Source of the DNA: a virus
Lineage: Duplodnaviria > Heunggongvirae > Uroviricota > Caudoviricetes
DNA: 48,686 bases
Virus record (IMG/VR): IMGVR_UViG_643348546_000001
Reading direction: 5' to 3' (one strand)
The translations under genes and the position numbers were made by a program. The notes under the pieces were generated by a model. It had not been told where the DNA came from. It made no database searches and saw only the letters and a list, made by a program, of their open reading frames with translations. Positions within the stretch are counted from its first letter, which is position 1; each line of letters begins with the position of its first letter. Shown piece after piece: positions 6,129 through 47,169 of the stretch.

Positions 6129-6799
6129 TGCTCCCCAAATACAAAACCAATTTCAGCCAGTGCCTCGTCCATTTTTTCGATGAACTCCGGCACCATCTCG
6201 TCAAAACTCGCTATATACTTTTCATTCCGCTCAATCACGACATAATGCAGGCCTTCACGCTTCATACGCGGGTCATAGTTGGCAAAGTACCAGGCATCTT
6301 TTCGCGTCACCCACATGCTGTACTGCACCTGGGCCATGTAAGCCGACTTTATGGCCTCGAAACCACCGAGCCGGAATTTCATGAAATCCCGGGAGGTAAA
6401 CGGGCATTTCAGCTCAAGGCCATTGCCGTCACTGCATAAACCATCGGGAGAGCAGGCGGTGCGCATACTTTCGTCGCGATAGATGATCGGGGATTCAATA
6501 ACATTTACGCCGGAAGTGAACTCAAACAGGGTTCTGGCGTCGTTCTCGTACTGTTTTCCCCAGGCCAGCGCTTTAGCGTTAACTTCCGGAGCCACACCGG
6601 TGCAAACCTCAGCTAGCAGGGTGTGGAAGTAGGACATTTTCATGTCAGGCCACTTCTTTCCTGATCGGGGCTTTGCTATCACGTTGTGAACTTCTGAAGC
6701 GGTGATGACGCCGAGCCGTAATTTGTGCCATGCATCATCCCCCTGTTCGACAGCTCTCACGTCGATCCCGGTACGCTGCAGGATAATGTCCGGTGTCAT
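6119..6799 (-). CDS. exo: Lambda exonuclease (Red alpha)
   Basis: 226-aa ORF near-identical to lambda Exo ([40 protein letters not shown]...). Confidence 0.97.
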
Positions 6800-7581
6800 G
6801 CTGCCACCTTCTGCTCAGTGGCTTTCTGTTTCAGGAATCCAAGAGCTTTCACTGCTTCGGCCTGTGTCAGTTCTGACGATGCGCGAATGTCGCGGCGAAA
6901 TATCTGGGAACAGAGCGGCAATAAGTCGTCATCCCATGTTTTATCCAGGGCGATCAGCAGAGTGTTAATCTCCTGCATGGTTTCATCGTTAACCGGAGTG
7001 ATGTCGCGTTCCGGCTGACGTTCTGCAGTGTATGCAGTATTTTCGACAATGCGCTCGGCTTCATCCTTGTCATAGATACCAGCAAATCCGAAGGCCAGAC
7101 GGGCACACTGAATCATGGCTTTATGCCGTAACATCCGTTTGGGATGCGACTGCCACGGTCCGGTGATTTCTCTGCCTTCGCGGGTTTTGAATGGTTCGCG
7201 GCGGCATTCATCCATCCACTCGGTAACGCAGATCGGATGATTGCGGTCTTTGCGGTAAATCCGGCATGTGCAGGATTCGTTGTCCTGTTCAAAGTCCATG
7301 CCGTCAAACTGCTGGTTTTCGTTGATGATGCGGGACCAGCCATCAACGCCCACCACCGGAACGATGCCGTTCTGCTTATCAGGGAAGGCGTAAATTTCTT
7401 TCGTCCACGGATTAAGGCCGTACTGGTTGGCGACGATCAACAATGCGATGAACTGCGCATCGCTGGCATCACCTTTAAATGCTGTCTGGCGAAGAGTGGT
7501 GATCAGTTCCTGTGGGTCGACAGAATCCATGCCGACACGTTCAGCCAGCTTCCCAGCCAGCGTTGCGAGTGCTGTACTCAT
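6796..7581 (-). CDS. bet: Recombination protein Bet (Red beta, single-strand annealing)
   Basis: 261-aa ORF near-identical to lambda Bet; 4-nt overlap with exo. Confidence 0.97.
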
Positions 7582-7586
7582 CCGTT

Positions 7587-7883
7587 TTATACCTCTGAAT
7601 CAATATCAACCTGATGGTGAGCAATGGTTTCAACCATGTACCGGATGTGTTCTGCCATGCGCTCCTGAAACTCAACATCGTCATCAAATGCACGGGTAAT
7701 GGCTTTTTTGCTGGCCCCGCAGCGTTGTAAATGATCGATGCAGAGCGATTCAAACAAATGCTGGGGCAGGCCTTTTTCCATGTCGTCTGCCAGTTCTGCC
7801 TCTTTCTCTTCACGGGCGATCTGCTGGTAGTGACGCGCCCAGCTCTGAGCCTCAAGACGATCCTGAATGTAATAAGCATTCAT
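7587..7883 (-). CDS. gam: Host-nuclease (RecBCD) inhibitor Gam
   Basis: 98-aa ORF matching lambda Gam ([21 protein letters not shown]...VDIDSEV); the lambda upstream extension (MDINTET...) is absent. Confidence 0.95.
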
Positions 7884-8644: not shown

Positions 8645-9157
8645 TTATTTCAAAGAAAAATTATGACTAGCGTATCTTGGAAGAAATTCATATAGTGTTA
8701 ATGTCTTAACGCCGTGAGAAGCAGCCGCATCCGGGATCATTATTCTTTTTTTAGGTTTGCCACCGGATGGTTTCTCATGGGTAATAATAGTATATCCATG
8801 TGTCATCGCATGGGCTATTAAAAAAGCATCTGCTTTTTCATGGCTTGCAAAATCAAACTTTGCCTTTTCGGTAACATCTAATTTAGTTGACCAATTTATT
8901 AACTTTGCATAATTTTCTATTGAACTATGCTCATCTTCGAAGAATGATGATGGTAACTCTTCTTTAATCCATTTACACAATGGATCATCTTTTGCACATA
9001 GTTCTTTTTTTACAGCATTAATGCTATAAATCAGACCATTAATGTGTAAAGCGAGAAGAAAATCCCAAAATATTTTGCAATAATTGAAGTTATATGCAAA
9101 GTTTTTTGCCTCTATGAAGACATTACTATCAATTAAGAATTTTCCATTATGAATCAT
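8645..9157 (-). CDS. PIN-like nuclease-fold protein (DUF4411-like), predicted toxin/effector
   Basis: 170-aa ORF; N-terminal FLIDSNVFIE and later acidic/Thr positions (ADAFLIAHAMTHGYTIITHEK) fit a PIN-like pattern; overlaps the upstream gene's stop by 4 nt; very AT-rich. Confidence 0.6.
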   Translation of the reverse strand: MIHNGKFLIDSNVFIEAKNFAYNFNYCKIFWDFLLALHINGLIYSINAVKKELCAKDDPLCKWIKEELPSSFFEDEHSSIENYAKLINWSTKLDVTEKAKFDFASHEKADAFLIAHAMTHGYTIITHEKPSGGKPKKRIMIPDAAASHGVKTLTLYEFLPRYASHNFSLK

Positions 9158-10293
9158 AGAGATTCTCGTTTTTTATAAAATTCAACAACTGTATCTGCTT
9201 TTACATTTAGCAGTACGCCTGCTTCCCTTAATGGTAATTGTTGAGACATTGCTTTGGAAATTATTATATTCGTAAGTTTTGGACTGTTACGAACAGGTAA
9301 TGTGTTAAAGAAAGAACCACCATTAGATTCTTTTTTGGGCTTATTGTAAGCTTGATCTTTAATTATCTCCAAAGTGTTTCTTTCTATCAAATCTAATTGT
9401 AACGCTTTGATTGCACAAGCGAAATCACTAACCTTAAATAACTTAGAAACCTCTTTTACTCGATAATAATTATTATCGCTGGATGCATTAAGCCAGAAAG
9501 ATTTGAAGAGATTATCAGGCATTAAGATTTCAGCAGCAACTTTATTACAAAAAGATTCTATGTTTTTTTCTGTGTCCCACCCAGAGACTCCATCGACTCC
9601 AAGCCAAAGATGAGCCACCTCATGAAATAATGTAAATACCTGCGCAGATAACGCGTCCGAGCTATTTACAAAAATGATCGGAGCAACGCTATCAGATATA
9701 CAGAAACCACGAAACTCTCGCGTGTCAAGTTTTCTTTTATTATTATTACCCACAACACCATTCTTGAAAACTAATACGCCAGTGTCTTCTATTAATTTTG
9801 CCACTTTAGAAAAATAGCTCTCAAAAGTGACATTTTTTATCTCTTTTTGTATATCAAAATGTATTGTGTTTGCTATGTCTGTAGCAACAACCTTATAATT
9901 TAATTTTCTATTAAATTTAAATTTACCAATAAAATCGAGTGGATCATCATTACCATTTTCTCTTAAATAGTCTTTGTACCACTCAAGTTTATATTCTATA
10001 TCATAGTAAACATCAAAAAAATCTTTTCCTAACTCACGGCTATTTATAGCTTGCCTTAAGTCAGGGATCTTGGGTTTGGCTGGAGTTGGTGGCGTTTCAA
10101 GAAATAAAAAACCGAAAGGGATTCCTCCAATTTTTGCCAGTTTTTCTGCTGCGGATTTACTTACCACTCCGTTAAGAAATTTATTAATCTTTTTGGGCAT
10201 GACTTGGTCAGCAAGAGTTTCGATAGAAACTCCTTGAGAATTTGCTATCCAATCAATCATCTTCCTAGACAATTGAAATTCAACCGCTGCCAT
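9154..10293 (-). CDS. HTH-domain / ImmA-IrrE-family (COG2856-like) zinc metallopeptidase protein
   Basis: 379-aa ORF; HExxH motif (FHEVAHLWLG) in the middle, HTH-like N-terminal segment; AGGTGA RBS 4 nt before the ATG; very AT-rich. Confidence 0.65.
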   Translation of the reverse strand: MAAVEFQLSRKMIDWIANSQGVSIETLADQVMPKKINKFLNGVVSKSAAEKLAKIGGIPFGFLFLETPPTPAKPKIPDLRQAINSRELGKDFFDVYYDIEYKLEWYKDYLRENGNDDPLDFIGKFKFNRKLNYKVVATDIANTIHFDIQKEIKNVTFESYFSKVAKLIEDTGVLVFKNGVVGNNNKRKLDTREFRGFCISDSVAPIIFVNSSDALSAQVFTLFHEVAHLWLGVDGVSGWDTEKNIESFCNKVAAEILMPDNLFKSFWLNASSDNNYYRVKEVSKLFKVSDFACAIKALQLDLIERNTLEIIKDQAYNKPKKESNGGSFFNTLPVRNSPKLTNIIISKAMSQQLPLREAGVLLNVKADTVVEFYKKRESL

Positions 10294-10422
10294 GTTATCA
10301 CCTAGTTAAAAAAAACTATTATTCAACAATTATTGTTGTGCACCTGATAGCTAACGTCAAGCCTAATTTATTGCCTTACTACAGTAAGCTGAAAAGCGAA
10401 GTGCATAATTTTGTTCTGATTT

Positions 10423-11115
10423 CTACCCATGCTTTCTATATGTCTGCGGCATGCTCCCGATGACTTTCCCGAAGATGAACACGCGGTTCATCTCGTCTTT
10501 CTCGATCGGGTCCCACGGTGAGTAGCTCTTGTTATCAGAGATAACCAGCAGCTTATCCTTCATCATTTGCAGGCGTTTTACATGGGCGGTGTCGTCATAC
10601 AGAAACGCATAGATACCATCACCGTCGAAAGATTTAACCGTGATATCAACGAACAGCAGATCACCTGGTTCGATCGTTCCTGACATGCTGTCACCACGCA
10701 CGTTAATGATGCGGATATTTTCCGCCTTCCTGCCATCGAACATGTGACGAGCATCGTCAAACGAGTATTCAACCGAGCGTAGAACTTCTACAAACTCACG
10801 GTTGATTACACCCGGCCCGGCACTGACTTCTATATCAAGAACGTCAATTTTGAAGTATTTGGAATGGCTGACAGCAGGCTTCCCTGATTGTTGACCGTCA
10901 TTTCTCATCGGGCCTATGCCTGAAGAGAGCCATTCTGTTCGAACACCCAATGCATTAGCTATTTCAACAATTTTTGTTGAGCCGCGCGCGTTGCCGCTTG
11001 TCAGTCTCCAGATTGTGGGTTGAGCTACGCCAGACGCCTTTGCAAGAGCGCCTTGAGACATTCCAGATTGTTCCATCGCTAGATTTAAGCGATCAGCAAG
11101 AGTTTCTTTTTTCAT
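10423..11115 (-). CDS. cI: CI-like prophage repressor (HTH + S24 LexA-like autopeptidase domain)
   Basis: Start assigned to the ATG at 11115 (the longer ORF starts with TTG); N-terminal HTH (LADRLNLAMEQSGMSQGALAKASGVAQPTIWRL), C-terminal Ser/Lys dyad context (RGDSMSGTIEPGDLLFVD ... KRL); not lambda cI by sequence; mRNA appears leaderless from PRM. Confidence 0.85.
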   Translation of the reverse strand: MKKETLADRLNLAMEQSGMSQGALAKASGVAQPTIWRLTSGNARGSTKIVEIANALGVRTEWLSSGIGPMRNDGQQSGKPAVSHSKYFKIDVLDIEVSAGPGVINREFVEVLRSVEYSFDDARHMFDGRKAENIRIINVRGDSMSGTIEPGDLLFVDITVKSFDGDGIYAFLYDDTAHVKRLQMMKDKLLVISDNKSYSPWDPIEKDEMNRVFIFGKVIGSMPQTYRKHG

Positions 11116-11225
11116 AAGTTTTAATTTATACGCTTGCGTATTGATGGTCAAAACACGTTTTGCTATTGCTTGGATTAATACGCATTGCTATTATTCATTC
11201 ATTGCAATACCAATAGGAATTGATA
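11116..11225. promoter_or_regulatory. Divergent PRM/PR promoters with operator repeats (OR)
   Basis: PR (plus strand): -35 TTGCTT 11166-11171, 17-nt spacer, -10 TATTAT 11189-11194. PRM (minus strand): -35 TTGACC (11144-11149), 17-nt spacer, -10 TAAATT (11122-11127), placing the transcript start about at the cI ATG. Palindrome TACGCTTGCGTA 11129-11140 and TTGCTATTGCT-type repeats. Confidence 0.6.
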
Positions 11226-18059: not shown

Positions 18060-19157
18060 TTAGAACTGGTAAACCAGACCTACAGCAACGATGTCATCAG
18101 TGCTTACACCGAGTGCTTTAGTGAAGTCATTTTTGTCAAGCAGGTTGATTTTGTAATCAACGAAAGTAGACATATTTTTGTTGAAGTAATAGGTTGCACC
18201 TACATCAACATATTTGACTAAGTCCTGATCGCCCCATACTCCAAGATCCTTACCTTTAGATTGCAGGTAAGCAACGGACGGACGCAGACCGAAATCGAAC
18301 TGATATTGTGCAACAGCTTCGAAGTTTTGGGCTTTATTAGCAACGAAGTGATCAGCAAATACAGTCATATTCTGGGTTTCAGAATAGGTAGTGGCCAGGT
18401 AAATGTTGTTAGCGTCATATTTCAGACCTGCGGCCCAAACTTCTGCATTTTTACCGGAAGCAAATACTTCAGGAAGAACTTTCCCTGCATTAACTTGAGT
18501 GTCGGTACGATCAGATTTTGCATAAGTTGCACCGATACCGAATCCTTCGTATTCATAGGTAGCAGAGAAACCGAAGCCATCACCGTTACCTTCGGTGTAG
18601 TTATCGAAATCGCTACGATCGTTTTTGCCTTGGTACTGAGCAGCAAAGTTCAGACCATCAACCAGGCCAAAGAAGTCGTTGTTACGATAGGTTGCAACAC
18701 CAGTGGTGCGACCAGTCATGAACACATCTGTTTGGGTCCAGGTATCGCCACCGAATTCTGGCAGAACGTCAGTCCACGCACCGATGTCGTATGCTACACC
18801 GTAGTTACGGCCGTAATCGATTGAGCCGTAGTCACCGAATTTCAGGCCTGCAAATGCAAGACGGGTTTTGTCTTTGGAGGAACCTTGAGATTCAGCGCGG
18901 TTGCCTTTGAATTCATATTCCCACTGACCGAAACCAGTCAGTTGATCGTTGATTTGGGTTTCACCTTTGAAGCCAAGACGGGCATAAGTAGTATCACCAT
19001 CATCTGCATCATTAGAGGAGAAGTAGTGCTTAGCATTAACTTTCCCGTACAGATCCAGCTTGTTACTGTCTTTATTATAAATTTCAGCTGCCTGAGCAGA
19101 CATCGCCATCAGTACTGATGCAGCTACAGCAGAAATTGCCACTGTTAATTTTTTCAT
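18060..19157 (-). CDS. nmpC: Outer-membrane general porin (OmpC/PhoE family; nmpC / phage Lc type)
   Basis: 365-aa ORF with signal peptide ([23 protein letters not shown]), AEIYNKD start of the mature protein, C-terminal aromatic VGLVYQF; lies between Q and the lysis genes on the opposite strand with an AT-rich promoter region 19158-19700. Confidence 0.92.
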
Positions 19158-37516: not shown

Positions 37517-40500
37517 ATGGGTAAAGGAAGCAGTAAGGGGCATACCCCGCGCGAAGCGAAGGACAACCTGAAGTCCACGCAGTTGCTGAGTGTGATCGAT
37601 GCCATCAGCGAAGGGCCGGTTGAAGGTCCGGTGGATGGATTAAAAAGCGTGCTGCTGAACAGTACGCCGGTGCTGGACACTGAGGGGAATACCAACATCT
37701 CCGGTGTCACGGTGGTGTTCCGTGCCGGTGAGCAGGAGCAGACACCGCCGGAGGGGTTTGAATCCTCCGGCTCCGAGACGGTGCTGGGTACGGAAGTGAA
37801 ATATGACACGCCGATCACCCGCACCATTACGTCTGCAAACATCGACCGTCTGCGCTTTACCTTCGGTGTACAGGCACTGGTGGAAACCACCTCAAAGGGT
37901 GACAGGAATCCGTCGGAAGTCCGTCTGCTGGTTCAGATACAACGTAACGGTGGCTGGGTGACGGAAAAAGACATCACCATTAAGGGCAAAACCACCTCGC
38001 AGTATCTGGCCTCGGTGGTGGTGGGTAGCCTGCCGCCGCGCCCGTTTAATATCCGGATGCGCAGGATGACGCCGGACAGCACCACAGACCAGCTGCAGAA
38101 CAAAACGCTCTGGTCGTCATACACCGAAATCATCGATGTGAAACAGTGCTACCCGAACACGGCACTGGTCGGCGTGCAGGTGGACTCGGAGCAGTTCGGC
38201 AGCCAGCAGGTGAGCCGTAATTATCATCTTCGCGGGCGCATTCTGCAGGTGCCGTCGAACTATAACCCGCAGACGCGGCAATACAGCGGTATCTGGGACG
38301 GAACGTTTAAGCCGGCATACAGCAACAACCCGGCCTGGTGTCTGTGGGATATGCTGACCCACCCGCGCTACGGCATGGGGAAACGTCTTGGTGCGGCGGA
38401 TGTGGATAAATGGGCGCTGTATGTCATCGGCCAGTACTGCGACCAGTCAGTGCCGGACGGTTTTGGCGGCACGGAGCCGCGCATCACCTGTAATGCCTAC
38501 CTGACCACGCAGCGTAAGGCGTGGGATGTGCTCAGTGATTTCTGCTCGGCGATGCGCTGTATGCCGGTATGGAACGGGCAGACGCTGACGTTCGTGCAGG
38601 ACCGACCATCAGATAAGGTGTGGACCTATAACCGCAGTAATGTGGTGATGCCGGATGATGGCGCGCCGTTCCGCTACAGCTTCAGCGCCCTGAAGGACCG
38701 CCATAATGCCGTTGAGGTGAACTGGATTGACCCGAACAACGGCTGGGAGACGGCGACAGAGCTTGTTGAAGATACGCAGGCCATTGCCCGTTACGGTCGT
38801 AATGTCACGAAGATGGATGCCTTTGGCTGTACCAGCCGGGGGCAGGCACACCGCGCCGGGCTGTGGCTGATTAAAACGGAACTGCTGGAGACGCAGACCG
38901 TGGATTTCAGCGTGGGTGCTGAAGGGCTTCGCCATGTACCGGGCGATGTCATTGAAATCTGCGATGATGACTATGCCGGTATCAGCACCGGTGGTCGCGT
39001 GCTGGCGGTGAACAGCCAGACCCGGACGCTGACGCTCGACCGTGAAATCACGCTGCCATCCTCCGGTACCACGCTGATAAGCCTGGTTGACGGAAGTGGT
39101 AATCCGGTCAGCGTGGAGGTTCAGCCCGTCACCGACGGACTTAAGGTGAAAGTGAACCGGGTTCCTGATGGCGTTGCAGAATACAGTGTGTGGGGGCTGA
39201 AGTTGCCGACGTTGCGTCAGCGCCTGTTCCGCTGTGTGAGTATCCGTGAGAACGATGACGGCACGTATGCCATCACTGCCGTGCAGCATGTACCGGAAAA
39301 AGAAGCCATCGTGGATAACGGGGCGCACTTTGACGGCGACCAGAGCAGCACGGTGAATGGTGTCACGCCGCCAGCGGTGCAGCACCTGACCGCCGAAGTC
39401 ACCGCAGACAGCGGGGAATATCAGGTGCTGGCGCGCTGGGACACGCCGAAGGTGGTGAAGGGCGTGAGCTTCCTGCTCCGTCTGACCGTAACAGCGGATG
39501 ACAGCAGTGAGCGGCTGGTCAGCACGGCCCGGACGACGGAAACCACATACCGCTTCACGCAACTGGCGCTGGGGAACTACAGGCTGACAGTCCGGGCGGT
39601 AAATGCGTGGGGGCAGCAGGGCGATCCGGCGTCGGTATCGTTCCGGATTGCCGCACCGGCAGCACCGTCGAGGATTGAGCTGACGCCGGGCTATTTTCAG
39701 ATAACCGCCACGCCGCATCTTGCCGTTTATGACCCGACGGTACAGTTTGAGTTCTGGTTCTCGGAAAAGCGGATTACCGATATCAGGCAGGTTGAAACCA
39801 CAGCACGCTATCTTGGCACGGCGCTGTACTGGATAGCCGCCAGTATCAATATCAAACCGGGCCATGATTATTACTTTTATATCCGCAGTGTGAACACCGT
39901 TGGCAAATCGGCATTCGTGGAGGCTGTTGGTCAGCCGAGTGATGATGCATCCGGTTATCTGGATTTTTTCAAAGGCGAGATAGGGAAAACCCATCTGGCT
40001 CAGGAGCTGTGGACGCAGATTGATAACGGTCAGCTTGCGCCTGACCTGGCTGAAATCAGGACGTCCATTACGGATGTCAGCAATGAAATCACGCAGACCG
40101 TCAATAAGAAACTGGAAGACCAGAGTGCGGCAATTCAGCAGATACAGAAGGTTCAGGTTGATACAAATAATAACCTGAACAGCATGTGGGCTGTGAAGCT
40201 GCAGCAGATGCAGGACGGACGCCTTTATATCGCGGGTATTGGTGCCGGTATTGAGAACACCCCTGACGGCATGCAGAGTCAGGTGCTGCTGGCGGCAGAC
40301 AGGATTGCGATGATTAATCCTGCGAATGGCAACACAAAGCCGATGTTTGTTGGGCAGGGCGATCAGATATTCATGAACGAAGTGTTCCTGAAACGCCTGA
40401 CGGCTCCCACCATTACCAGCGGCGGTAATCCTCCGGTATTTTCCCTGACACCGGACGGGCGGCTGACGGCGAAAAATGCCGATATCAGCGGTAACGTGAA

Positions 40501-40996
40501 TGCGAACTCCGGGACGCTCAACAACGTCACGATTAACGAGAACTGTCGGGTTCTGGGAAAACTGTCCGCGAACCAGATTGAAGGCGATCTCGTTAAAACA
40601 GTGGGCAAAGCTTTCCCCCGGGACTCCCGTGCACCGGAGCGGTGGCCATCAGGGACCATTACCGTCAGGGTTTATGACGATCAGCCGTTTGACCGGCAGA
40701 TTGTTATTCCCGCGGTGGCGTTTCGTGGCGCTAAACATGAGCGGGAGAATAACGATATTTATTCGTCATGCCGTCTGATAGTGAAGAAAAACGGTGCTGA
40801 AATTTATAACCGTACCGCGCTGGATAATACGCTGGTTTATACAGGTGTTATTGATATGCCTGCTGGTCGCGGTCACATGACGCTGGAGTTTTCGGTATCA
40901 GCGTGGCTGGTAAATGACTGGTATCCCACAGCCAGTATCAGCGATTTGCTGGTTGTGGTGATGAAGAAATCCACAGCAGGTATCACGATTAGCTGA
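37517..40996 (+). CDS. J: Central tail fibre / host-specificity protein J (divergent C-terminal receptor-binding region)
   Basis: 1159-aa ORF; lambda J-like over most of its length but longer than lambda J (1132 aa), and the last about 150 aa do not match the remembered lambda J C-terminus. Confidence 0.95.
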
Positions 40997-41064: not shown

Positions 41065-41664
41065 ATGCGTAAACTTTATGCCGCCATTTTGTCCGCAGCC
41101 ATCTGTCTGGCCGTATCCGGTGCGCCTGCATGGGCGTCTGAACATCAGTCCACGCTGAGCGCGGGCTATCTTCGTGCCCGTACGAACGCTCCCGGCAGCG
41201 ATAATCTGAACGGGATTAACGTGAAATACCGTTATGAGTTTACGGACACGCTGGGGCTGATTACGTCATTCAGTTATGCCAACGCTGAAGATGAGCAAAA
41301 AACGCATTACAGCGATACCCGCTGGCATGAGGATTCCGTGCGTAACCGCTGGTTCAGCGTGATGGCGGGACCGTCTGTGCGCGTGAATGAATGGTTCAGC
41401 GCGTATGCGATGGCGGGTGTGGCTTACAGCCGTGTGTCGACTTTCTCCGGGGATTATCTCCGCGTAACTGACAACAAGGGGAAAACGCATGATGTGCTGA
41501 CCGGAAGTGATGACGGTCACCACAGCAACACGTCTCTGGCGTGGGGAGCTGGCGTGCAGTTTAACCCGACCGAATCGGTGGCCATTGATGTCGCTTATGA
41601 AGGCTCCGGCAGTGGTGACTGGCGCACTGACGGTTTCATCGTGGGTGTCGGTTATAAATTCTGA
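41065..41664 (+). CDS. lom: Outer-membrane protein Lom (Ail/Lom family)
   Basis: 199-aa ORF with signal peptide, near-identical to lambda Lom. Confidence 0.95.
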   Translation: MRKLYAAILSAAICLAVSGAPAWASEHQSTLSAGYLRARTNAPGSDNLNGINVKYRYEFTDTLGLITSFSYANAEDEQKTHYSDTRWHEDSVRNRWFSVMAGPSVRVNEWFSAYAMAGVAYSRVSTFSGDYLRVTDNKGKTHDVLTGSDDGHHSNTSLAWGAGVQFNPTESVAIDVAYEGSGSGDWRTDGFIVGVGYKF

Positions 41665-41722
41665 TTAGCCAGGTAACACAGTGTTATGACAGCCCGCCGG
41701 TTCAGGCGGGCTTTTTTGTGGG

Positions 41723-44700
41723 GTGAATATGGCAGTAAAGATTTCAGGTGTACTGAAAGACGGTGCAGGTAAACCGGTACAGAACTGCACAATCCAGCTG
41801 AAAGCAAAACGTAACAGCACCACGGTGGTGGTGAACACGGTGGCATCTGAAAATCCGGATGAAGCAGGGCGTTACAGCATGGACGTTGAGCACGGCCAGT
41901 ACAGCGTTATTCTGTTGGTGGAGGGATTCCCGCCGTCACATGCCGGGACCATCACCGTGTATGAAGATTCTCAACCGGGTACGCTGAATGATTTTCTCGG
42001 TGCCATGACGGAGGATGATGCCCGTCCTGAGGCACTGCGCCGTTTTGAACTGATGGTGGAAGAGGTGGCGCGTAACGCGTCCGCAGTGGCACAGAACACG
42101 GCAGCCGCGAAGAAGTCAGCCAGCGATGCCGGCACATCAGCACGTGAGGCGGCAACCCATGCGACTGATGCTGCAGGCTCAGCACGCGCAGCCAGCACGT
42201 CAGCCGGACAGGCCGCTTCGTCGGCTCAGTCAGCGTCTTCCAGCGCAGGAACGGCATCAACAAAGGCTACTGAAGCATCAAAAAGTGCTGCCGCTGCAGA
42301 GTCCTCAAAAAGCGCGGCGGCCACCAGTGCCGGTGCGGCGAAAACGTCAGAAACGAATGCTGCAGTGTCACAAAAATCTGCAGCTACTTCTGCATCCACC
42401 GCGACCACGAAAGCGTCAGAAGCTGCCACCTCAGCCCGGGATGCGGCGGCCTCAAAAGAGGTAGCGAAATCATCAGAAACGAACGCATCATCAAGTGCCA
42501 GTAGTGCAGCTTCCTCGGCAACGGCGGCAGGAAATTCCGCGAAGGCCGCAAAAACGTCTGAGACGAATGCGGATAACAGCGCACAGGCGGCAGCAGACTC
42601 ACAAACTGCATCGGCAAACTCCGCGACAGCAGCCAAAAAATCAGAAACCAACGCGAAAAATAGCGAGGCAGCAGCAAAGAGCAGCGAAACCAACGCTAAA
42701 GCCAGCGAAACTAATGCTAAATCCAGTGAAACAAACGCGGCGAAATCTGCGGCGGACGCACTTAATTATCGCAACCAGGCCCAGGGTATTGTTGGTACTA
42801 ACATCGGTTTGGGATCATCACCGCGTGATTGCTCTGACATCTCAGGAAATCCATCAGGTTATATTGGCTTTATGCGCATCATGGCTGATGCAACAGGTTT
42901 CCCGTCTATTGCATCCGGTGAAAGCAGTCTTACGGGGTTTATTAGTCAGGTAGATGGAACTCCAGCGTATACAGGTGTATTTCAGGGATGGACTACTCGC
43001 TCGCTTTATACCTATCGCTGGAGTCCGACAACAGGCCCGCAATGGACACGCCACGCAAGAAAAGATGAGGTTATCCGATTTCAGCGTTCAAGCAACACAA
43101 GAACTGTCATTTTATCTACTGACGTTCAGGCTGACGGCTGTTACTTACAGGTTGATGCTGACGGTCAGTGGGGCGCGTTTAACCCTAAAGCTGGTAGATG
43201 GCAACCGCTCGCAGTTGCACAAGGTGGCACAGGGGCGAATGATGCAAGTACAGCGCGCTCTAAACTTGAAGTCATGTTTGAAGCAAAAACTGGCCTTGAT
43301 GCGAATACGAACTTAAACGATATAAAAGGTACTACAGCCGGTTTTTATTACCAACCAATGTCTGCCAACGCAAAGCCAGAACTAAATTACCCGATACAGC
43401 TTGCGGGTGCACTGATGGTTTTAAAGGACGGGGCTAATGTTGGGTACTCATGTATTCAGATTTATTATGTATACAATAACCCAAGAATCTCATATAGCCG
43501 TACATACAATGGTGGTTCTGACACATGGTCAGACTGGGTGAAAAATGTATCAACTGAAAGGGTTGATGATTGGACTAGCGAAACATGGATATATAACCAT
43601 GATAAATCCATGCGCCTGGGTTTAACCGGATCAACGTGGGGGTGTTACAGCGACACACAAAAAAAATGGATACCGCTTGATGTTTCTCATGGTGGTACTG
43701 GTGCGGCAACTGTTGATGGTGTCAGAACGAATCTTGGCTTAGGTAGGAACAACAGCCCTCAACTTAACAGTCTATTTCTTGATAGATATAGTGATTCGAC
43801 CAATACATACACATCTAGTGGAATTCTCCATACAAGACTGTTAGCAACTGACAGCACTGTGCGTCTTGGTGCTGATATGTATGTTGAAACTTTATCAAAT
43901 GAGCCAGGTCAATTAACAATAAGGTTTACATACGATGGTTCAACTGGTGCTTCAAAATATCTAAACCTTAACTCAGAAGGTAATTTAATTGTAGATAGTG
44001 CGATACTGAAATCAACGGTTGAAAAACCTTTACAAATAAGGAGCGCTAACCCAGCAATAAGATTTAATGAAACAGATCGCCCGGCTAACACGCCTACTTA
44101 TACTCTCATTGCTAATGCTGGCGACTGGTTTATTCAGAAACGCGATTATGATGATGCCGGAAGCGTTAGTAACGCAATTGCATATAATTTCGCAAACGAC
44201 AGAATTGATGTGCAAAATCTTAAAGCGTCTGGGTTAATTACAGCTAACTCAGGAATCGCAACATTAACAGGTCATGACTGGAACGCTCAGCATACTGATA
44301 ACGTCGACAAATTTAGACCAATTGCAGGCAGTACAAACGGCCCGGCAGGCTCTATGGTTCTTGGCGGCATTCATGTTCAATTTAGTAAAAATTATGCTGT
44401 GCAGTTCGGAGGCCGCAATTCCGGTTTTTGGGGAAGAACAATTGAAAATGGAACGACGCAGGAATGGAAGAAATTACTAACAGTAGACGATCTCAATTCA
44501 TCTACCGCTCTTGCTGTCAGGTCATTAACCACATCTAACCCGATAAAATCTGGCGGAGGGCGGATTGATGTCCTTGGAAGCACGTCAGACTATAGCAAAA
44601 TGGATTGCTTTGTACGTGGGTTTGATAGCACCGGTAATTCTCTCGCGTGGGCGTTGGGTTCATCAGTCGGCGTAAGTAAGATGCTGTCGCTAAAAAATTT

Positions 44701-45484
44701 CTTTAGCGGAGCTGAGATACTGCTAAATGGTAATGACGGCGCGGTTCAACTCAAAACAGGTGCTGTTAACGGTGCTAAAGCGCAGGCGCTCACTATCAAC
44801 AAGGATGAGGTTAACTCAACTGTTGATTTAACTCTTACAAAACAAACAGGGACTGGAAATCGTTTTGTTTTACAGAACTTAGGTAATACAGAACTATCAT
44901 TTGCCGCAAAAGTATGGGGATCAAGTGATCGACAAAACGTTTTTGAGGTTGGAACGTCTGCTGCGTATCTGTTTTATGCGCAAAAAACGTCAGCAGGCCA
45001 GTTGTTTGATGTAAATGGCGCTATTAATTGCACAACGCTGAATCAGTCATCAGACCGCGACCTTAAAGACGATATTCTCGTTATCAGCGACGCGACGAAA
45101 GCAATCCGTAAAATGAACGGATACACCTACACGCTCAGGGAAAACGGGATGCCTTATGCTGGCGTTATTGCACAGGAAGTAATGGAGGCGATACCAGAAG
45201 CTGTGGGATCGTTTACTCATTATGGTGAAGAGTTGCAAGGTCCGACCGTTGACGGCAACGAGCTACGCGAAGAAACTCGCTATCTTAATGTTGACTACTC
45301 CGCCGTGACGGGTTTACTTGTTCAGGTCGCCCGTGAAACAGATGATCGCGTTACCGCGCTGGAAGAGGAAAACACAACGCTACGTCAAAATCTGGCAACA
45401 GCAGGCACCCGGATCAGCACTCTGGAAAATCAGGTAAGCGAACTGGTTGCACTTGTCCGGCAGTTAACAGGAAGCGAACATTGA
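41723..45484 (+). CDS. stf: Side tail fibre protein Stf with C-terminal intramolecular-chaperone (peptidase S74-like) domain
   Basis: 1253-aa ORF; N-terminal about 130 aa match lambda Stf (MAVKISGVLKDGAGKPVQNCTIQLKA...); long Ala/Ser/Thr-rich KxSETNA repeat region; C-terminal SDRDLKDDI...GYTYTL...LEEENTTLRQ resembles self-cleaving chaperone domains of endosialidase / L-shaped tail fibres. Confidence 0.88.
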   Translation: MNMAVKISGVLKDGAGKPVQNCTIQLKAKRNSTTVVVNTVASENPDEAGRYSMDVEHGQYSVILLVEGFPPSHAGTITVYEDSQPGTLNDFLGAMTEDDARPEALRRFELMVEEVARNASAVAQNTAAAKKSASDAGTSAREAATHATDAAGSARAASTSAGQAASSAQSASSSAGTASTKATEASKSAAAAESSKSAAATSAGAAKTSETNAAVSQKSAATSASTATTKASEAATSARDAAASKEVAKSSETNASSSASSAASSATAAGNSAKAAKTSETNADNSAQAAADSQTASANSATAAKKSETNAKNSEAAAKSSETNAKASETNAKSSETNAAKSAADALNYRNQAQGIVGTNIGLGSSPRDCSDISGNPSGYIGFMRIMADATGFPSIASGESSLTGFISQVDGTPAYTGVFQGWTTRSLYTYRWSPTTGPQWTRHARKDEVIRFQRSSNTRTVILSTDVQADGCYLQVDADGQWGAFNPKAGRWQPLAVAQGGTGANDASTARSKLEVMFEAKTGLDANTNLNDIKGTTAGFYYQPMSANAKPELNYPIQLAGALMVLKDGANVGYSCIQIYYVYNNPRISYSRTYNGGSDTWSDWVKNVSTERVDDWTSETWIYNHDKSMRLGLTGSTWGCYSDTQKKWIPLDVSHGGTGAATVDGVRTNLGLGRNNSPQLNSLFLDRYSDSTNTYTSSGILHTRLLATDSTVRLGADMYVETLSNEPGQLTIRFTYDGSTGASKYLNLNSEGNLIVDSAILKSTVEKPLQIRSANPAIRFNETDRPANTPTYTLIANAGDWFIQKRDYDDAGSVSNAIAYNFANDRIDVQNLKASGLITANSGIATLTGHDWNAQHTDNVDKFRPIAGSTNGPAGSMVLGGIHVQFSKNYAVQFGGRNSGFWGRTIENGTTQEWKKLLTVDDLNSSTALAVRSLTTSNPIKSGGGRIDVLGSTSDYSKMDCFVRGFDSTGNSLAWALGSSVGVSKMLSLKNFFSGAEILLNGNDGAVQLKTGAVNGAKAQALTINKDEVNSTVDLTLTKQTGTGNRFVLQNLGNTELSFAAKVWGSSDRQNVFEVGTSAAYLFYAQKTSAGQLFDVNGAINCTTLNQSSDRDLKDDILVISDATKAIRKMNGYTYTLRENGMPYAGVIAQEVMEAIPEAVGSFTHYGEELQGPTVDGNELREETRYLNVDYSAVTGLLVQVARETDDRVTALEEENTTLRQNLATAGTRISTLENQVSELVALVRQLTGSEH

Positions 45485-45760
45485 TATCCTTCAAGCCCTG
45501 AAGGAGGCTGTTCCTGGTACGTTCAGACTGTTGCTGAGCTGGAGATCGCAACGGAGGAAGAGACATCGTTACTGACGGCATGGAAGACATATCGGGTGTT
45601 GCTGAACAGTGTTGATACATCAGTAGCACCGGATATTGAATGGCCAGTAGCACCTATAGGGTAAATTCGTAATGATTACCTAAATACGTTATTCTTTTGT
45701 TAAAAAAGTGATTTTGCTATAGGTAGGGAGTATGTTCTTGGATTAAGAATAAAAAATCGC

Positions 45761-45790
45761 CATGAAAGAGCTTCATGGCGAGTACATAAA
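45761..45790 (-). terminator. Putative intrinsic terminator (minus strand)
   Basis: 9-bp stem CGCCATGAA / TTCATGGCG with a 5-nt loop, followed on the minus strand by ATTTTTTATT. Confidence 0.4.
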
Positions 45791-46524
45791 CGTACAAAAT
45801 GTGATGAAAGTAGAGTGGCGTAAGCCACAATATTAAGATATGACAATAGCGAAGAAAAGTAAATAACATTTTATGGACGTTTAATTGTTAATTATAAAAA
45901 CTAGAGTGCCCGATATTGTTTATCTTGCTTTAAAATAATGTACTCAAACCAAATTTTTGAGCTAAAAGCTCAAATAATATAAATGCAATGATAATGTTTA
46001 ATAAGACAATTAGCTTGCTTTGTATTTTCATTTCGGAATACTGTTAAGTAACTTTGATGATCCTAACAATAGATCGGAATTTTCTTAGAGTCAATGGTCA
46101 CTGTTTTTGCTTGCAAAGCAAATGTTTTGGTGGTTATAAGTTGTCTTAATATAGTCACGCATGCAACTTGTTCCATGCGGAGATTAAAGATTGGAATATA
46201 ACGCGAAGATGGAATTAAATTACATTTGCAATAATCAATTTATTATTACTCAATAATTACCGATATTATTATTGTAAATTAATCATTAGAGTGCAAAAAG
46301 AAATGTAACGGCAAAATAAGAGGACGATAGCTGAGAAAAAAGCGTGCTTTCCCAATCTGGGGCAAATCACGTCTGAATGACACCTGAAAACAGGTGGTAG
46401 CCTCAAGAAGGCTTGGAATATTCTTCTTTAATGTTATGTAATTCATTGATTTTTCGTGTACAATTTTAAGACATTTATTCCAAGAGAAATTTTTAACTCT
46501 TTGATTTTTCGACTCTGTATCATC

Positions 46525-46585
46525 GGTCTCGAAAACCGGAGTAGGGGCAACTCTACCGGGGGGTCAAATCCCCCTCTCTCCGCCA
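46525..46585 (+). other. 3' segment (about 61 nt, anticodon stem to CCA-proximal end) of a tRNA-Ser gene, with one T-loop substitution; probable integration-site remnant
   Basis: GGTCTCGAAAACCGGAGTAGGGGCAACTCTACCGGGGGGTCAAATCCCCCTCTCTCCGCCA matches the remembered 3' two-thirds of E. coli serU (CGA anticodon) except GGGGGTTCAAATC to GGGGGGTCAAATC; the 5' acceptor/D-arm is absent. Confidence 0.7.
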
Positions 46586-47169
46586 CTTTATCAATGACTT
46601 ATCTCCCGACTTCCCGCCTTGCTTTTCCTAAACAGAACAATCGTAGAATATTCTTGAAGGGTTAGATCGTCACTGTTTTCTGTTCGATACTGTGACATTC
46701 AGCACTTGATTCGCTATGGATCTGACAGGAAGGTTTTGAGCGAAAATTTGCAGTTATTCAGTCGTTTTCTTATCGGTCACCATTATTCTTTTAGACATTG
46801 ATCCTACAAAGCTGCCGCAAAGTTGGTGGTGGGAACTGAAGTTGCGTAGAGAAGGGGTCAATACCCGGAGGCAAACATGGGCTGGCAAAAGTGTAGCGGT
46901 ATTAGGCGCAGCTATTTAGCCTAGTTATGTTTTATGAAAACTTGATATCATATAAGTGTCTTACTTATTGGCTGTAAATAAGTTTTTCCTAAGGAATTGT
47001 TTCTTGAGTATCATTTGTAACTGTAACGGAATTTATAATCCTTTGCTTTATTGTTACGGTATTTTTTATTACACCCTATTTTTTATGTGGTTTTTTATAC
47101 TGACGTTTGGCAAAGTGAACTTTATATGCATATACTTCATCCTGGTTTCAGTTAAGTTGGGTGGATGAT

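Follow-up and report, generated by a model that had tools for sequence, protein, structure and literature searches.

A probably self-chaperoning side tail fibre with a residual tfa gene in a lambda-like prophage

Introduction

The side tail fibres of lambda-like phages and the lateral tail fibres of T5 are the closest described counterparts of the gene treated here, the stf gene of a lambda-like prophage contained in IMG/VR record IMGVR_UViG_643348546_000001 (Caudoviricetes; 48,686 nucleotides (nt), the whole stretch being referred to as the window). In lambda and in the Rac prophage of Escherichia coli K-12, the fibre protein (Stf or StfR) ends in a T4 gp37-like tip and has a separate protein, Tfa or TfaR, with which this tip is folded. 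The side fibres of Ur-lambda speed adsorption, lambda gpStfN comprises residues 1-91, and the Stf region homologous to the shaft discussed below was modelled as a proximal coiled coil (residues 102-393) in the Ur-lambda structure paper (PMC12617516). The T5 fibre pb1 carries its own C-terminal chaperone, in which Ser1264/Lys1269 autocleave the Thr1263-Ser1264 bond; the S1264A variant stays uncleaved, and adsorption is blocked by the cleaved protein only (PMC4690869). For lateral fibres, both in T5 and in small siphophages, binding to O-antigen glycans as a non-essential primary receptor has been reported or proposed (PMC4690869, PMC8594841).

The stf gene of the window probably encodes a complete side tail fibre that chaperones itself and that came about by cassette replacement in an stf-tfa locus of the lambda type. 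It is an ordinary, uncharacterised example of a common architecture that NCBI has already named ('prophage tail fiber N-terminal domain and S74 family endopeptidase-containing protein'), and no new kind of system. What is added here are the scar of tfa, the heptad nature of the shaft together with its in-register insertions and deletions (indels), the recombination joints, an optional knob module, and a predicted cleavage site.

A single-chain fibre with a C-terminal S74 chaperone

The open reading frame (ORF) at 41723-45484 (+) is uninterrupted, just as the initial annotation of the sequence had it, and comprises 1253 amino acids (aa) when counted from GTG 41723 in the ORF list of the window. 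Its 5' end reads GTG-AAT-ATG, with a G-rich stretch directly 5' of the ATG at 41729. Judged from the sequence, this ATG is the more likely start, because the resulting protein (MAVKISG..., 1251 aa) begins like lambda Stf (PDB 9e7m) and because NCBI places the start there in relatives; all residue numbers given here count from it. The exact protein is already public (ECIAI1_0803 of E. coli IAI1, CAQ97668.1, WP_000268779.1) under the RefSeq name 'prophage tail fiber N-terminal domain-containing protein', and is on record in identical form from 14 E. coli entries. The full allele at an identity of at least 99 % occurs in no complete genome of the collection searched, the best match being AR_0077 with 96.6 % identity over 97 % of the gene.

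Both ends of the chain turned out as they had initially been described. The N-terminus is that of lambda Stf, with a match to PF08400 (phage_tail_N) over the full model length of 1-134 (240.2 bits against a cut-off of 26.6, E 6.9e-72) and near-identity of residues 1-94 to lambda Stf in PDB 9e7m (E 5e-51). At the opposite end, PF13884 (Peptidase_S74) matches residues 1108-1159 over model positions 1-57/58 (46.2 bits against a cut-off of 22, E 5.5e-12) and thereby covers the segment SSDRDLKDDI...GYTYTL, from which an S74-like intramolecular chaperone had been proposed. The domain opens with S1108-D-R-D-L-K1113, that is, with a Ser-x4-Lys dyad. Among 1.84 billion cluster representatives searched, 2142 proteins matched at E <= 0.001; an alignment of 36 diverse homologues from this search has D1109 and K1113 without exception, with S1108 conserved to at least 90 %. 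The S1108/K1113 motif also aligns in the fibre chaperone of phage S16 (6f45).

An AlphaFold model of residues 900-1251 (mean predicted local distance difference test score, pLDDT, of 77) predicts a fold for this domain. Strands 1159-1172 and 1178-1188 form a long beta-hairpin (1159-1188) that is followed by a helix (1190-1247), both modelled at pLDDT 77-93; the helix corresponds to the terminal heptad region that had been noted before, and it is kept across the family, though with varying length. The best PDB matches of the model in Foldseek were the chaperone of K1F endosialidase (3gw6), the ICA domain of MyRF (7dc3), and the GA-1 chaperone (3gud), all with a probability of 1.0 and with target-normalised TM-scores of 0.55-0.62 for chaperone-only chains. 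By analogy with pb1, the C-terminal domain is probably self-cleaving and Ser1107-Ser1108 is the predicted scissile bond, which would leave residues 1-1107 as the mature fibre and set free a chaperone of 144 residues (~16 kDa).

It is very improbable, in our estimate, that the S74-like domain instead escapes cleavage and remains on the fibre, whether capping it structurally or forming part of its receptor-binding tip. Such a role would suit four relatives (P0277, P0285, P0287, and P0291) in which the shaft is joined straight to the chaperone with no tip between, so that their binding tip is left open, and cleavage of the present fibre is itself a prediction. However, the dyad is kept throughout the 36 diverse sequences, the fold matches chaperone domains that are autoprocessing, and the uncleaved form of T5 pb1 cannot bind its receptor (PMC4690869).

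Two variations were seen among the distant homologues P0127 and P0177: in one chaperone, Cys occupies the position of the nucleophilic Ser (TQTCDRELK), and the C-terminal coiled coil of another is lengthened by repeated ENA(S/N)LKA(S/D)V(A/T)AM units.

Probable origin from a classical stf-tfa locus

The initial annotation had stated that no separate tfa gene follows the fibre. This is correct for an intact gene, as tblastn of the window with lambda Tfa and K-12 TfaR gave a single place, 45521-45664, and no intact tfa elsewhere; at that place, however, a 3' fragment without a start has been retained. It matches positions 87-130/131 of PF02413 (Caudo_TAP, E 5.7e-18) and residues 147-192/194 of lambda Tfa (tblastn), which amounts to about a quarter of the gene, and no ATG-, GTG-, or TTG-initiated ORF of at least 40 aa is present on the + strand there. 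NCBI labels the equivalent piece an incomplete pseudogene in every relative fetched. Being a start-less remnant, the fragment supports rather than refutes the notion that tfa became dispensable.

The Rac locus provides the most direct comparison, since it holds stfR and an intact tfaR in K-12 and an S74-type stf followed by a tfa fragment in PCP06235. Homology between the two stops at residue 281 of stf (nt ~842), where a SETNA-coding 23-mer ends, and returns in the last 137 nt of tfaR. When the window is compared with lambda and with Rac, both joints lie as in the K-12/PCP06235 pair. For most sampled E. coli stf alleles, homology to the window is lost at 42567-42570; in a second class the break lies at 42702, within a 21-bp array described below. 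Of 5426 complete E. coli genomes, 802 carry the junction of chaperone and tfa fragment. The 36 nt that follow the stf stop are conserved, yet the tfa fragments carry different allelic 3' ends, a combination that fits repeated crossovers in the conserved piece of tfa.

Taken at the level of sequence, these comparisons indicate that stf arose by replacement of a cassette in a classical stf-tfa locus and that tfa thereby became dispensable. The left crossover would have taken place inside the heptad coiled coil, at the SETNA-coding 23-mer near 42570, and the right crossover within the conserved last ~140 nt of tfa; the replacement would thus have removed the first three quarters of tfa, for which the incoming fibre presumably had no need.

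One could also imagine that the fibre still depends on Tfa supplied in trans by another prophage and that the fragment is a mere accident of deletion. E. coli genomes do often hold several stf/tfa loci (places matching stf number 2 per genome in the median and up to 14). On the other hand, Tfa serves a different class of fibre tip, to which the S74 chaperone is a self-contained alternative, and the arrangement of chaperone and truncated tfa is stable in those 802 genomes. The same arrangement, with no tfa annotated, is found in mEp460, which was deposited as a complete phage genome and in which homology to the tfa fragment continues past stf as far as locus position 7769. Of the alternatives considered here, we give dependence on Tfa in trans the slimmest chance.

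Two features of the junction deserve mention. After the TGA of stf, 59 codons without a further stop continue in the same frame and end in the C-terminal fragment of tfa (45482-45664). Programmed read-through of the TGA, which would append a Tfa tail to the fibre, was considered and set aside, as an in-frame arrangement has a prior of 1 in 3 and no signal supports it; the relatives share one junction and are thus not independent cases, and the in-frame arrangement is probably one historical accident. The second feature concerns the Rfam family IS009 (RF02111), which is listed as a candidate small RNA gene. In K-12 it matches within the coding 3' part of tfaR (220 bits; 6755-6953 of locus L010), and in the window it scores 71.6 bits, below threshold, at 45424-45624 (+). 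Since the family matches the coding part of tfaR, the signal in the window re-detects the tfa fragment rather than an independent RNA gene, and IS009 appears to model a conserved segment of protein coding and recombination.

The heptad shaft and its length variation

The region behind the attachment domain had been described as a low-complexity tract with SETNA-type repeats. Seven SETNA motifs are indeed present (at residues 207, 249, 277, 305, 319, 326, and 333) in a tract of 52-80 % Ala, Ser, and Thr, but the tract consists of 35 regular heptads rather than being of low complexity. The autocorrelation of residue identity over residues 104-348 reaches 0.37-0.44 at lags of 7, 14, 21, 28, 35, and 42, as compared to 0.11-0.21 at other lags. 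The SETNA units thus read as one variant of the heptad in a regular coiled coil and not as loose repeats. The same periodicity of 7 residues is found in lambda Stf and K-12 StfR, and the proximal shaft is predicted to be trimeric as in Stf-type fibres. Repetition at the DNA level, which had also been noted, exists to a modest extent, the stronger signal being the 7-residue period of the protein: a 21-bp tandem array holds 2.7 copies (83 % identity), and four dispersed 23-nt copies are spaced by 126/84/84 nt, which are multiples of 21, and are 78-87 % identical.

The initial suggestion of length variation in this region agrees with what is seen among relatives. In five of them, the heptad region differs by indels of 7 aa (AR_0077) and of 98, 7, and 14 aa (GF47), all multiples of 7, and the 21-bp array comprises 3, 2, or 1 units, AR_0077 having one unit fewer and GF47 two fewer. 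A check of the multiples of 7 by megablast coordinates showed breakpoints but no indels, the sampled rows being single ungapped pieces. From these alignments, the heptad array appears to tolerate, and in relatives to show, only such changes in length as preserve the register.

The variable copy number of the tandem array might suggest that the SETNA tract is a contingency locus, at which slipped-strand mispairing at high frequency varies fibre length within a population. We regard this as improbable, given that the array is short and imperfect, that the other repeats are dispersed and diverged, that variation was seen between distinct lineages and not within one, and that a 21-bp unit never shifts the frame and hence allows no on/off switching.

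A broader proposition is that the Ala/Ser heptad array of Stf-type fibres is an evolved splice-and-ruler module, serving as both joint and length dial. An in-register crossover or slippage yields a functional coiled coil, so the array could serve both ends; we put this forward tentatively, as a possible but rather doubtful generalisation. If true, the heptad array would be the preferred left joint for the swapping of receptor-binding cassettes, with the SETNA-coding 23-mers as recurrent breakpoints and the retained 3' fragment of tfa as the right joint, and the reach of the fibre would change in steps of ~1 nm (quanta of 7 residues), possibly matched to the thickness of O-antigen or capsule.

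Proposed function

Assembly of the fibre would begin with the association of three chains. The C-terminal chaperone, with its coiled-coil helix and beta-hairpin, would then drive trimerisation and the folding of the beta-rich tip, and once the tip has folded, Ser1108, activated by Lys1113, would cut the Ser1107-Ser1108 bond. Departure of the chaperone would finally expose the receptor-binding tip, as demonstrated for T5 pb1. By analogy with the fibres cited above, the fibre probably binds a surface glycan, O-antigen for instance, as its receptor, and its most likely role is that of a glycan-binding accessory fibre.

Several points weigh against this picture. Cleavage, assembly, and receptor binding of the fibre are all drawn by analogy from other systems. 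Residues 900-1251 were modelled as a monomer with a predicted TM-score (pTM) of 0.42, which leaves the trimeric fold of the tip unestablished; Foldseek with this monomer model gave no match to T5 pb1 (4uw7/4uw8), and sequence inspection found no alignable Arg at a spacing equivalent to that of the folding-sensor pair of pb1 (Arg1250, Asp1239). The rule of multiples of 7 comes from four indels in two genomes. Furthermore, close relatives hold copies of the fibre gene that are disrupted by insertion sequences (IS), and an IS3-family element lies near int, so that the use of this stf copy in virions is uncertain.

The last two points lead to a reading in which the gene looks intact but is an unused remnant of a defective prophage and owes its conservation to recent acquisition or recombination. 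The IS3-family element (1562-2877, with an IS1222 frameshift element at 2335-2452, 156.6 bits in Rfam) is situated in the early region and adjoins the lambda-type integrase gene, and it may have inactivated excision functions; in relatives at the same chromosomal site, the fibre gene is split by IS5 or ISSen4, and in the laboratory Stf can be dispensed with, as lambda PaPa demonstrates (PMC12617516). Nevertheless, the frame has stayed open for 1251 codons with its catalytic residues intact, the window holds a full lambda-type set of terminase, portal, capsid, tape-measure, and J genes, and the identical protein recurs in the 14 E. coli entries. A relic is therefore unlikely, albeit the most serious of the competing explanations, and a functional self-chaperoning fibre is preferred.

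Distal tip and knob-like modules

The part of the model that precedes the chaperone is mostly beta-strand (block pLDDT 50-87). Residues 830-1224 share 71 % aa identity with the lateral tail fibre of FritzHoffmann, a virulent Nonagvirus, and by sequence the distal half is one common to lateral fibres of virulent siphophages. A tip like the 'bullet' of T5 pb1 was considered for residues ~836-1107 and found no support: Foldseek returned no hit to pb1(970-1263), a test limited by the monomer model, and phmmer against PDB aligned pb1 in the repeat region only, with a non-significant match in the chaperone. Database relatives of the distal half include many proteins of 709 aa that would start at ~Met544 here, within the second knob, which suggests frequent splitting or truncation of the gene upstream of this point in other strains (IS insertions, frameshifts).

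Between shaft and tip lie two knob-like modules, each followed by a W..PL..GGTGA..AR.NLG connector. For residues 516-611, the top PDB sequence matches are R2 pyocin fibre chains (6ct8/6cl6) with marginal E values of 0.012-0.016 (hits up to 0.12), and the AlphaFold model of residues 355-700, which spans both knobs, is unusable (mean pLDDT 37). The label 'pyocin knob' is thus unconfirmed here and stays NCBI's name for the relatives. When the fibre and the tfa fragment were scanned against NCBIfam, no family was found, so that NCBI's product names 'S74' and 'pyocin knob' must come from another rule set. An origin of the second knob by internal duplication of the first was rejected, as BLASTP of the halves matched only the short GGTGA connector (E 2e-6); judged from their alignment, the two would at best be distant paralogues. 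A module of 161 aa, which comprises the GGTGA connector and most of knob 2, is optional: it is present here and in AR_0077, N1286, and GF47, and absent from mEp460, PCP06235, Res13-Lact-EB12-05, and FritzHoffmann.

Prophage setting and other features

The window holds a whole lambda-like prophage, from a lambda-type integrase gene (1-1071, -) through a cI-like repressor to terminase, portal, and capsid E. At its right part, J (37517-40996) and lom (41065-41664; Ail_Lom, E 4.9e-125) precede stf, an order common to lambda, mEp460, and Rac. Rightward of stf follow an AraC-family regulator gene and IS fragments, and in close relatives ybhB and bioA come next; the locus is the bio-side end of the prophage. 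A search for the lambda att core gave chance-level matches only. The features of the fibre locus are collected in Table 1.

Table 1. Coordinates of features in and around the stf gene of the window.
Feature	Position	Strand	Basis
Terminator-like hairpin with T-run between lom and stf (predicted)	41691-41712	+	Consensus scan; terminator annotated at the same position in phage mEp460
stf, side tail fibre gene, 1251 codons + TGA (alternative start GTG 41723: 1253 aa)	41729-45484	+	ORF list; start by lambda Stf and NCBI calls
Lambda Stf N-terminal collar/tail-attachment domain, residues 1-134	41729-42130	+	PF08400, PDB 9e7m
35 uninterrupted heptads, residues 104-348, consensus x-x-A-x-x-S-A, proximal coiled-coil shaft	42038-42772	+	Autocorrelation, heptad rows
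Third copy of the 23-nt AKTSETNA repeat, left mosaic junction	42548-42570	+	Repeat family, BLAST end-points at 42570
21-bp tandem array, 2.7 copies, 83 % identity, SETNAK[A/S] units	42682-42738	+	Tandem Repeats Finder
First knob-like module, residues 362-447	42812-43069	+	Conserved throughout the relatives and also in FritzHoffmann; aligned with knob 2 by MAFFT
Optional 161-aa module, residues 449-609 (GGTGA connector and most of knob 2)	43073-43555	+	Alignment of relatives
Second knob-like module, residues 516-611 ('pyocin knob domain' of NCBI in relatives)	43274-43561	+	Marginal PDB match
Distal shaft and beta-rich tip, residues 673-1107, presumed receptor-binding part of the mature fibre	43745-45049	+	FritzHoffmann identity, AlphaFold model
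S74 intramolecular chaperone, residues 1108-1251; predicted nucleophile Ser1108 (45050-45052), Lys1113 (45065-45067)	45050-45481	+	PF13884, fold, dyad
Long C-terminal chaperone helix, 58 residues, 1190-1247, heptad/coiled-coil region	45296-45469	+	DSSP helix (291-348 of the model), pLDDT 87-93
Junction between stf stop and tfa fragment, with an orphan AAGGAGG inside	45485-45520	+	Conserved in all S74-type stf prophages examined
tfa remnant, last ~47 codons and stop of lambda-type tfa, without start codon, in frame with stf	45521-45664	+	PF02413, tblastn
Non-coding AT-rich spacer reaching to the AraC-family regulator gene, outside the fibre system	45665-47160		GC 0.37-0.42; relatives without annotated genes there

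ORF-free, AT-rich DNA had been described as following the fibre directly; such a spacer is present, but it begins only after 45664, past the tfa fragment. A tRNA scan of the spacer returned no tRNA, and IS009 was the only strong RNA-family signal of an Rfam scan. A stretch at ~46521-46587 (+) resembles the 3' two-thirds of a tRNA-Ser(CGA), with anticodon loop, long variable arm, T-arm, and a ...CTCTCCGCCA end. It has G for T in the T-loop, and ARAGORN calls no tRNA there; a possible explanation is an old duplicate of the attachment site of a further integrative element, lying between the prophage and the AraC-family gene.

Two further observations concern the remainder of the prophage. A full-length general porin gene (18060-19157, -; Porin_1, E 1e-156) is situated inside the prophage upstream of the terminase genes (22707 onward) and looks like prophage-borne outer-membrane cargo. 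In addition, a protein with an M78 (IrrE-like) peptidase domain adjoins a cI-type repressor composed of a helix-turn-helix and an S24 peptidase (9154-11151, -), a pairing that is unusual for the immunity region of a lambda-like prophage.

Implications

The domain map upgrades a generic RefSeq name, and the predicted Ser1107|Ser1108 cleavage site can be tested directly. The practical value is modest: natural joints of lambda-type stems to foreign tips are useful for the engineering of chimeric lambda Stf fibres (retargeted phages, delivery particles), for which self-chaperoning tips need no cognate tfa and in-register heptad positions offer natural fusion points.

Comparison with known systems

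Lambda Stf/Tfa and Rac StfR/TfaR are the nearest relatives of the proximal part, with an nt identity of ~87 % (lambda) to 95 % (Rac) up to residue 281. Stf and StfR share with the present fibre the attachment domain, the place after J and lom, and the Ala/Ser-rich heptad coiled coil, whereas everything distal to residue ~281 is unrelated: in place of their gp37-like tip, the fibre described here has a different beta-rich tip and a fused S74 chaperone, and tfa is cut to its last ~47 codons.

T5 pb1 is likewise a single long chain on a siphophage, with an N-proximal region rich in Ala, Ser, and Glu that holds SETNA-like units. In its C-terminal S74 chaperone, a Ser-x4-Lys dyad is combined with a central coiled coil, and autocleavage unmasks the receptor-binding tip (predicted for the present fibre). 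However, likeness in sequence is confined to the repeat region and, weakly, the chaperone (E 0.0045), the attachment domain differs, and the fibres considered here have one or two knob modules. The lateral fibre of FritzHoffmann (Bas20) resembles the window's fibre not only in its distal half but also over residues 318-541, which include knob 1 (51 % aa identity), although its N-terminal domain is only 35 % identical, the phage is virulent, and the 161-aa module is missing.

Among lambdoid phages, mEp460 comes close, as its side fibre shares gene order, chaperone, and the junction to the tfa fragment (93.5 % nt identity over 71 % of the gene), but it lacks the 161-aa connector-plus-knob-2 module and has a different central shaft. 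Finally, the chaperones of K1F endosialidase (3GW6), of the GA-1 neck appendage (3GUD), and of MyRF (7DC3) are the best structural matches of the modelled C-terminus and belong to PF13884 as well, yet at a sequence identity of 10-23 %, and the passengers that they serve, such as a sialidase beta-helix stalk or a transcription factor, are unrelated to the tip of the fibre described here.

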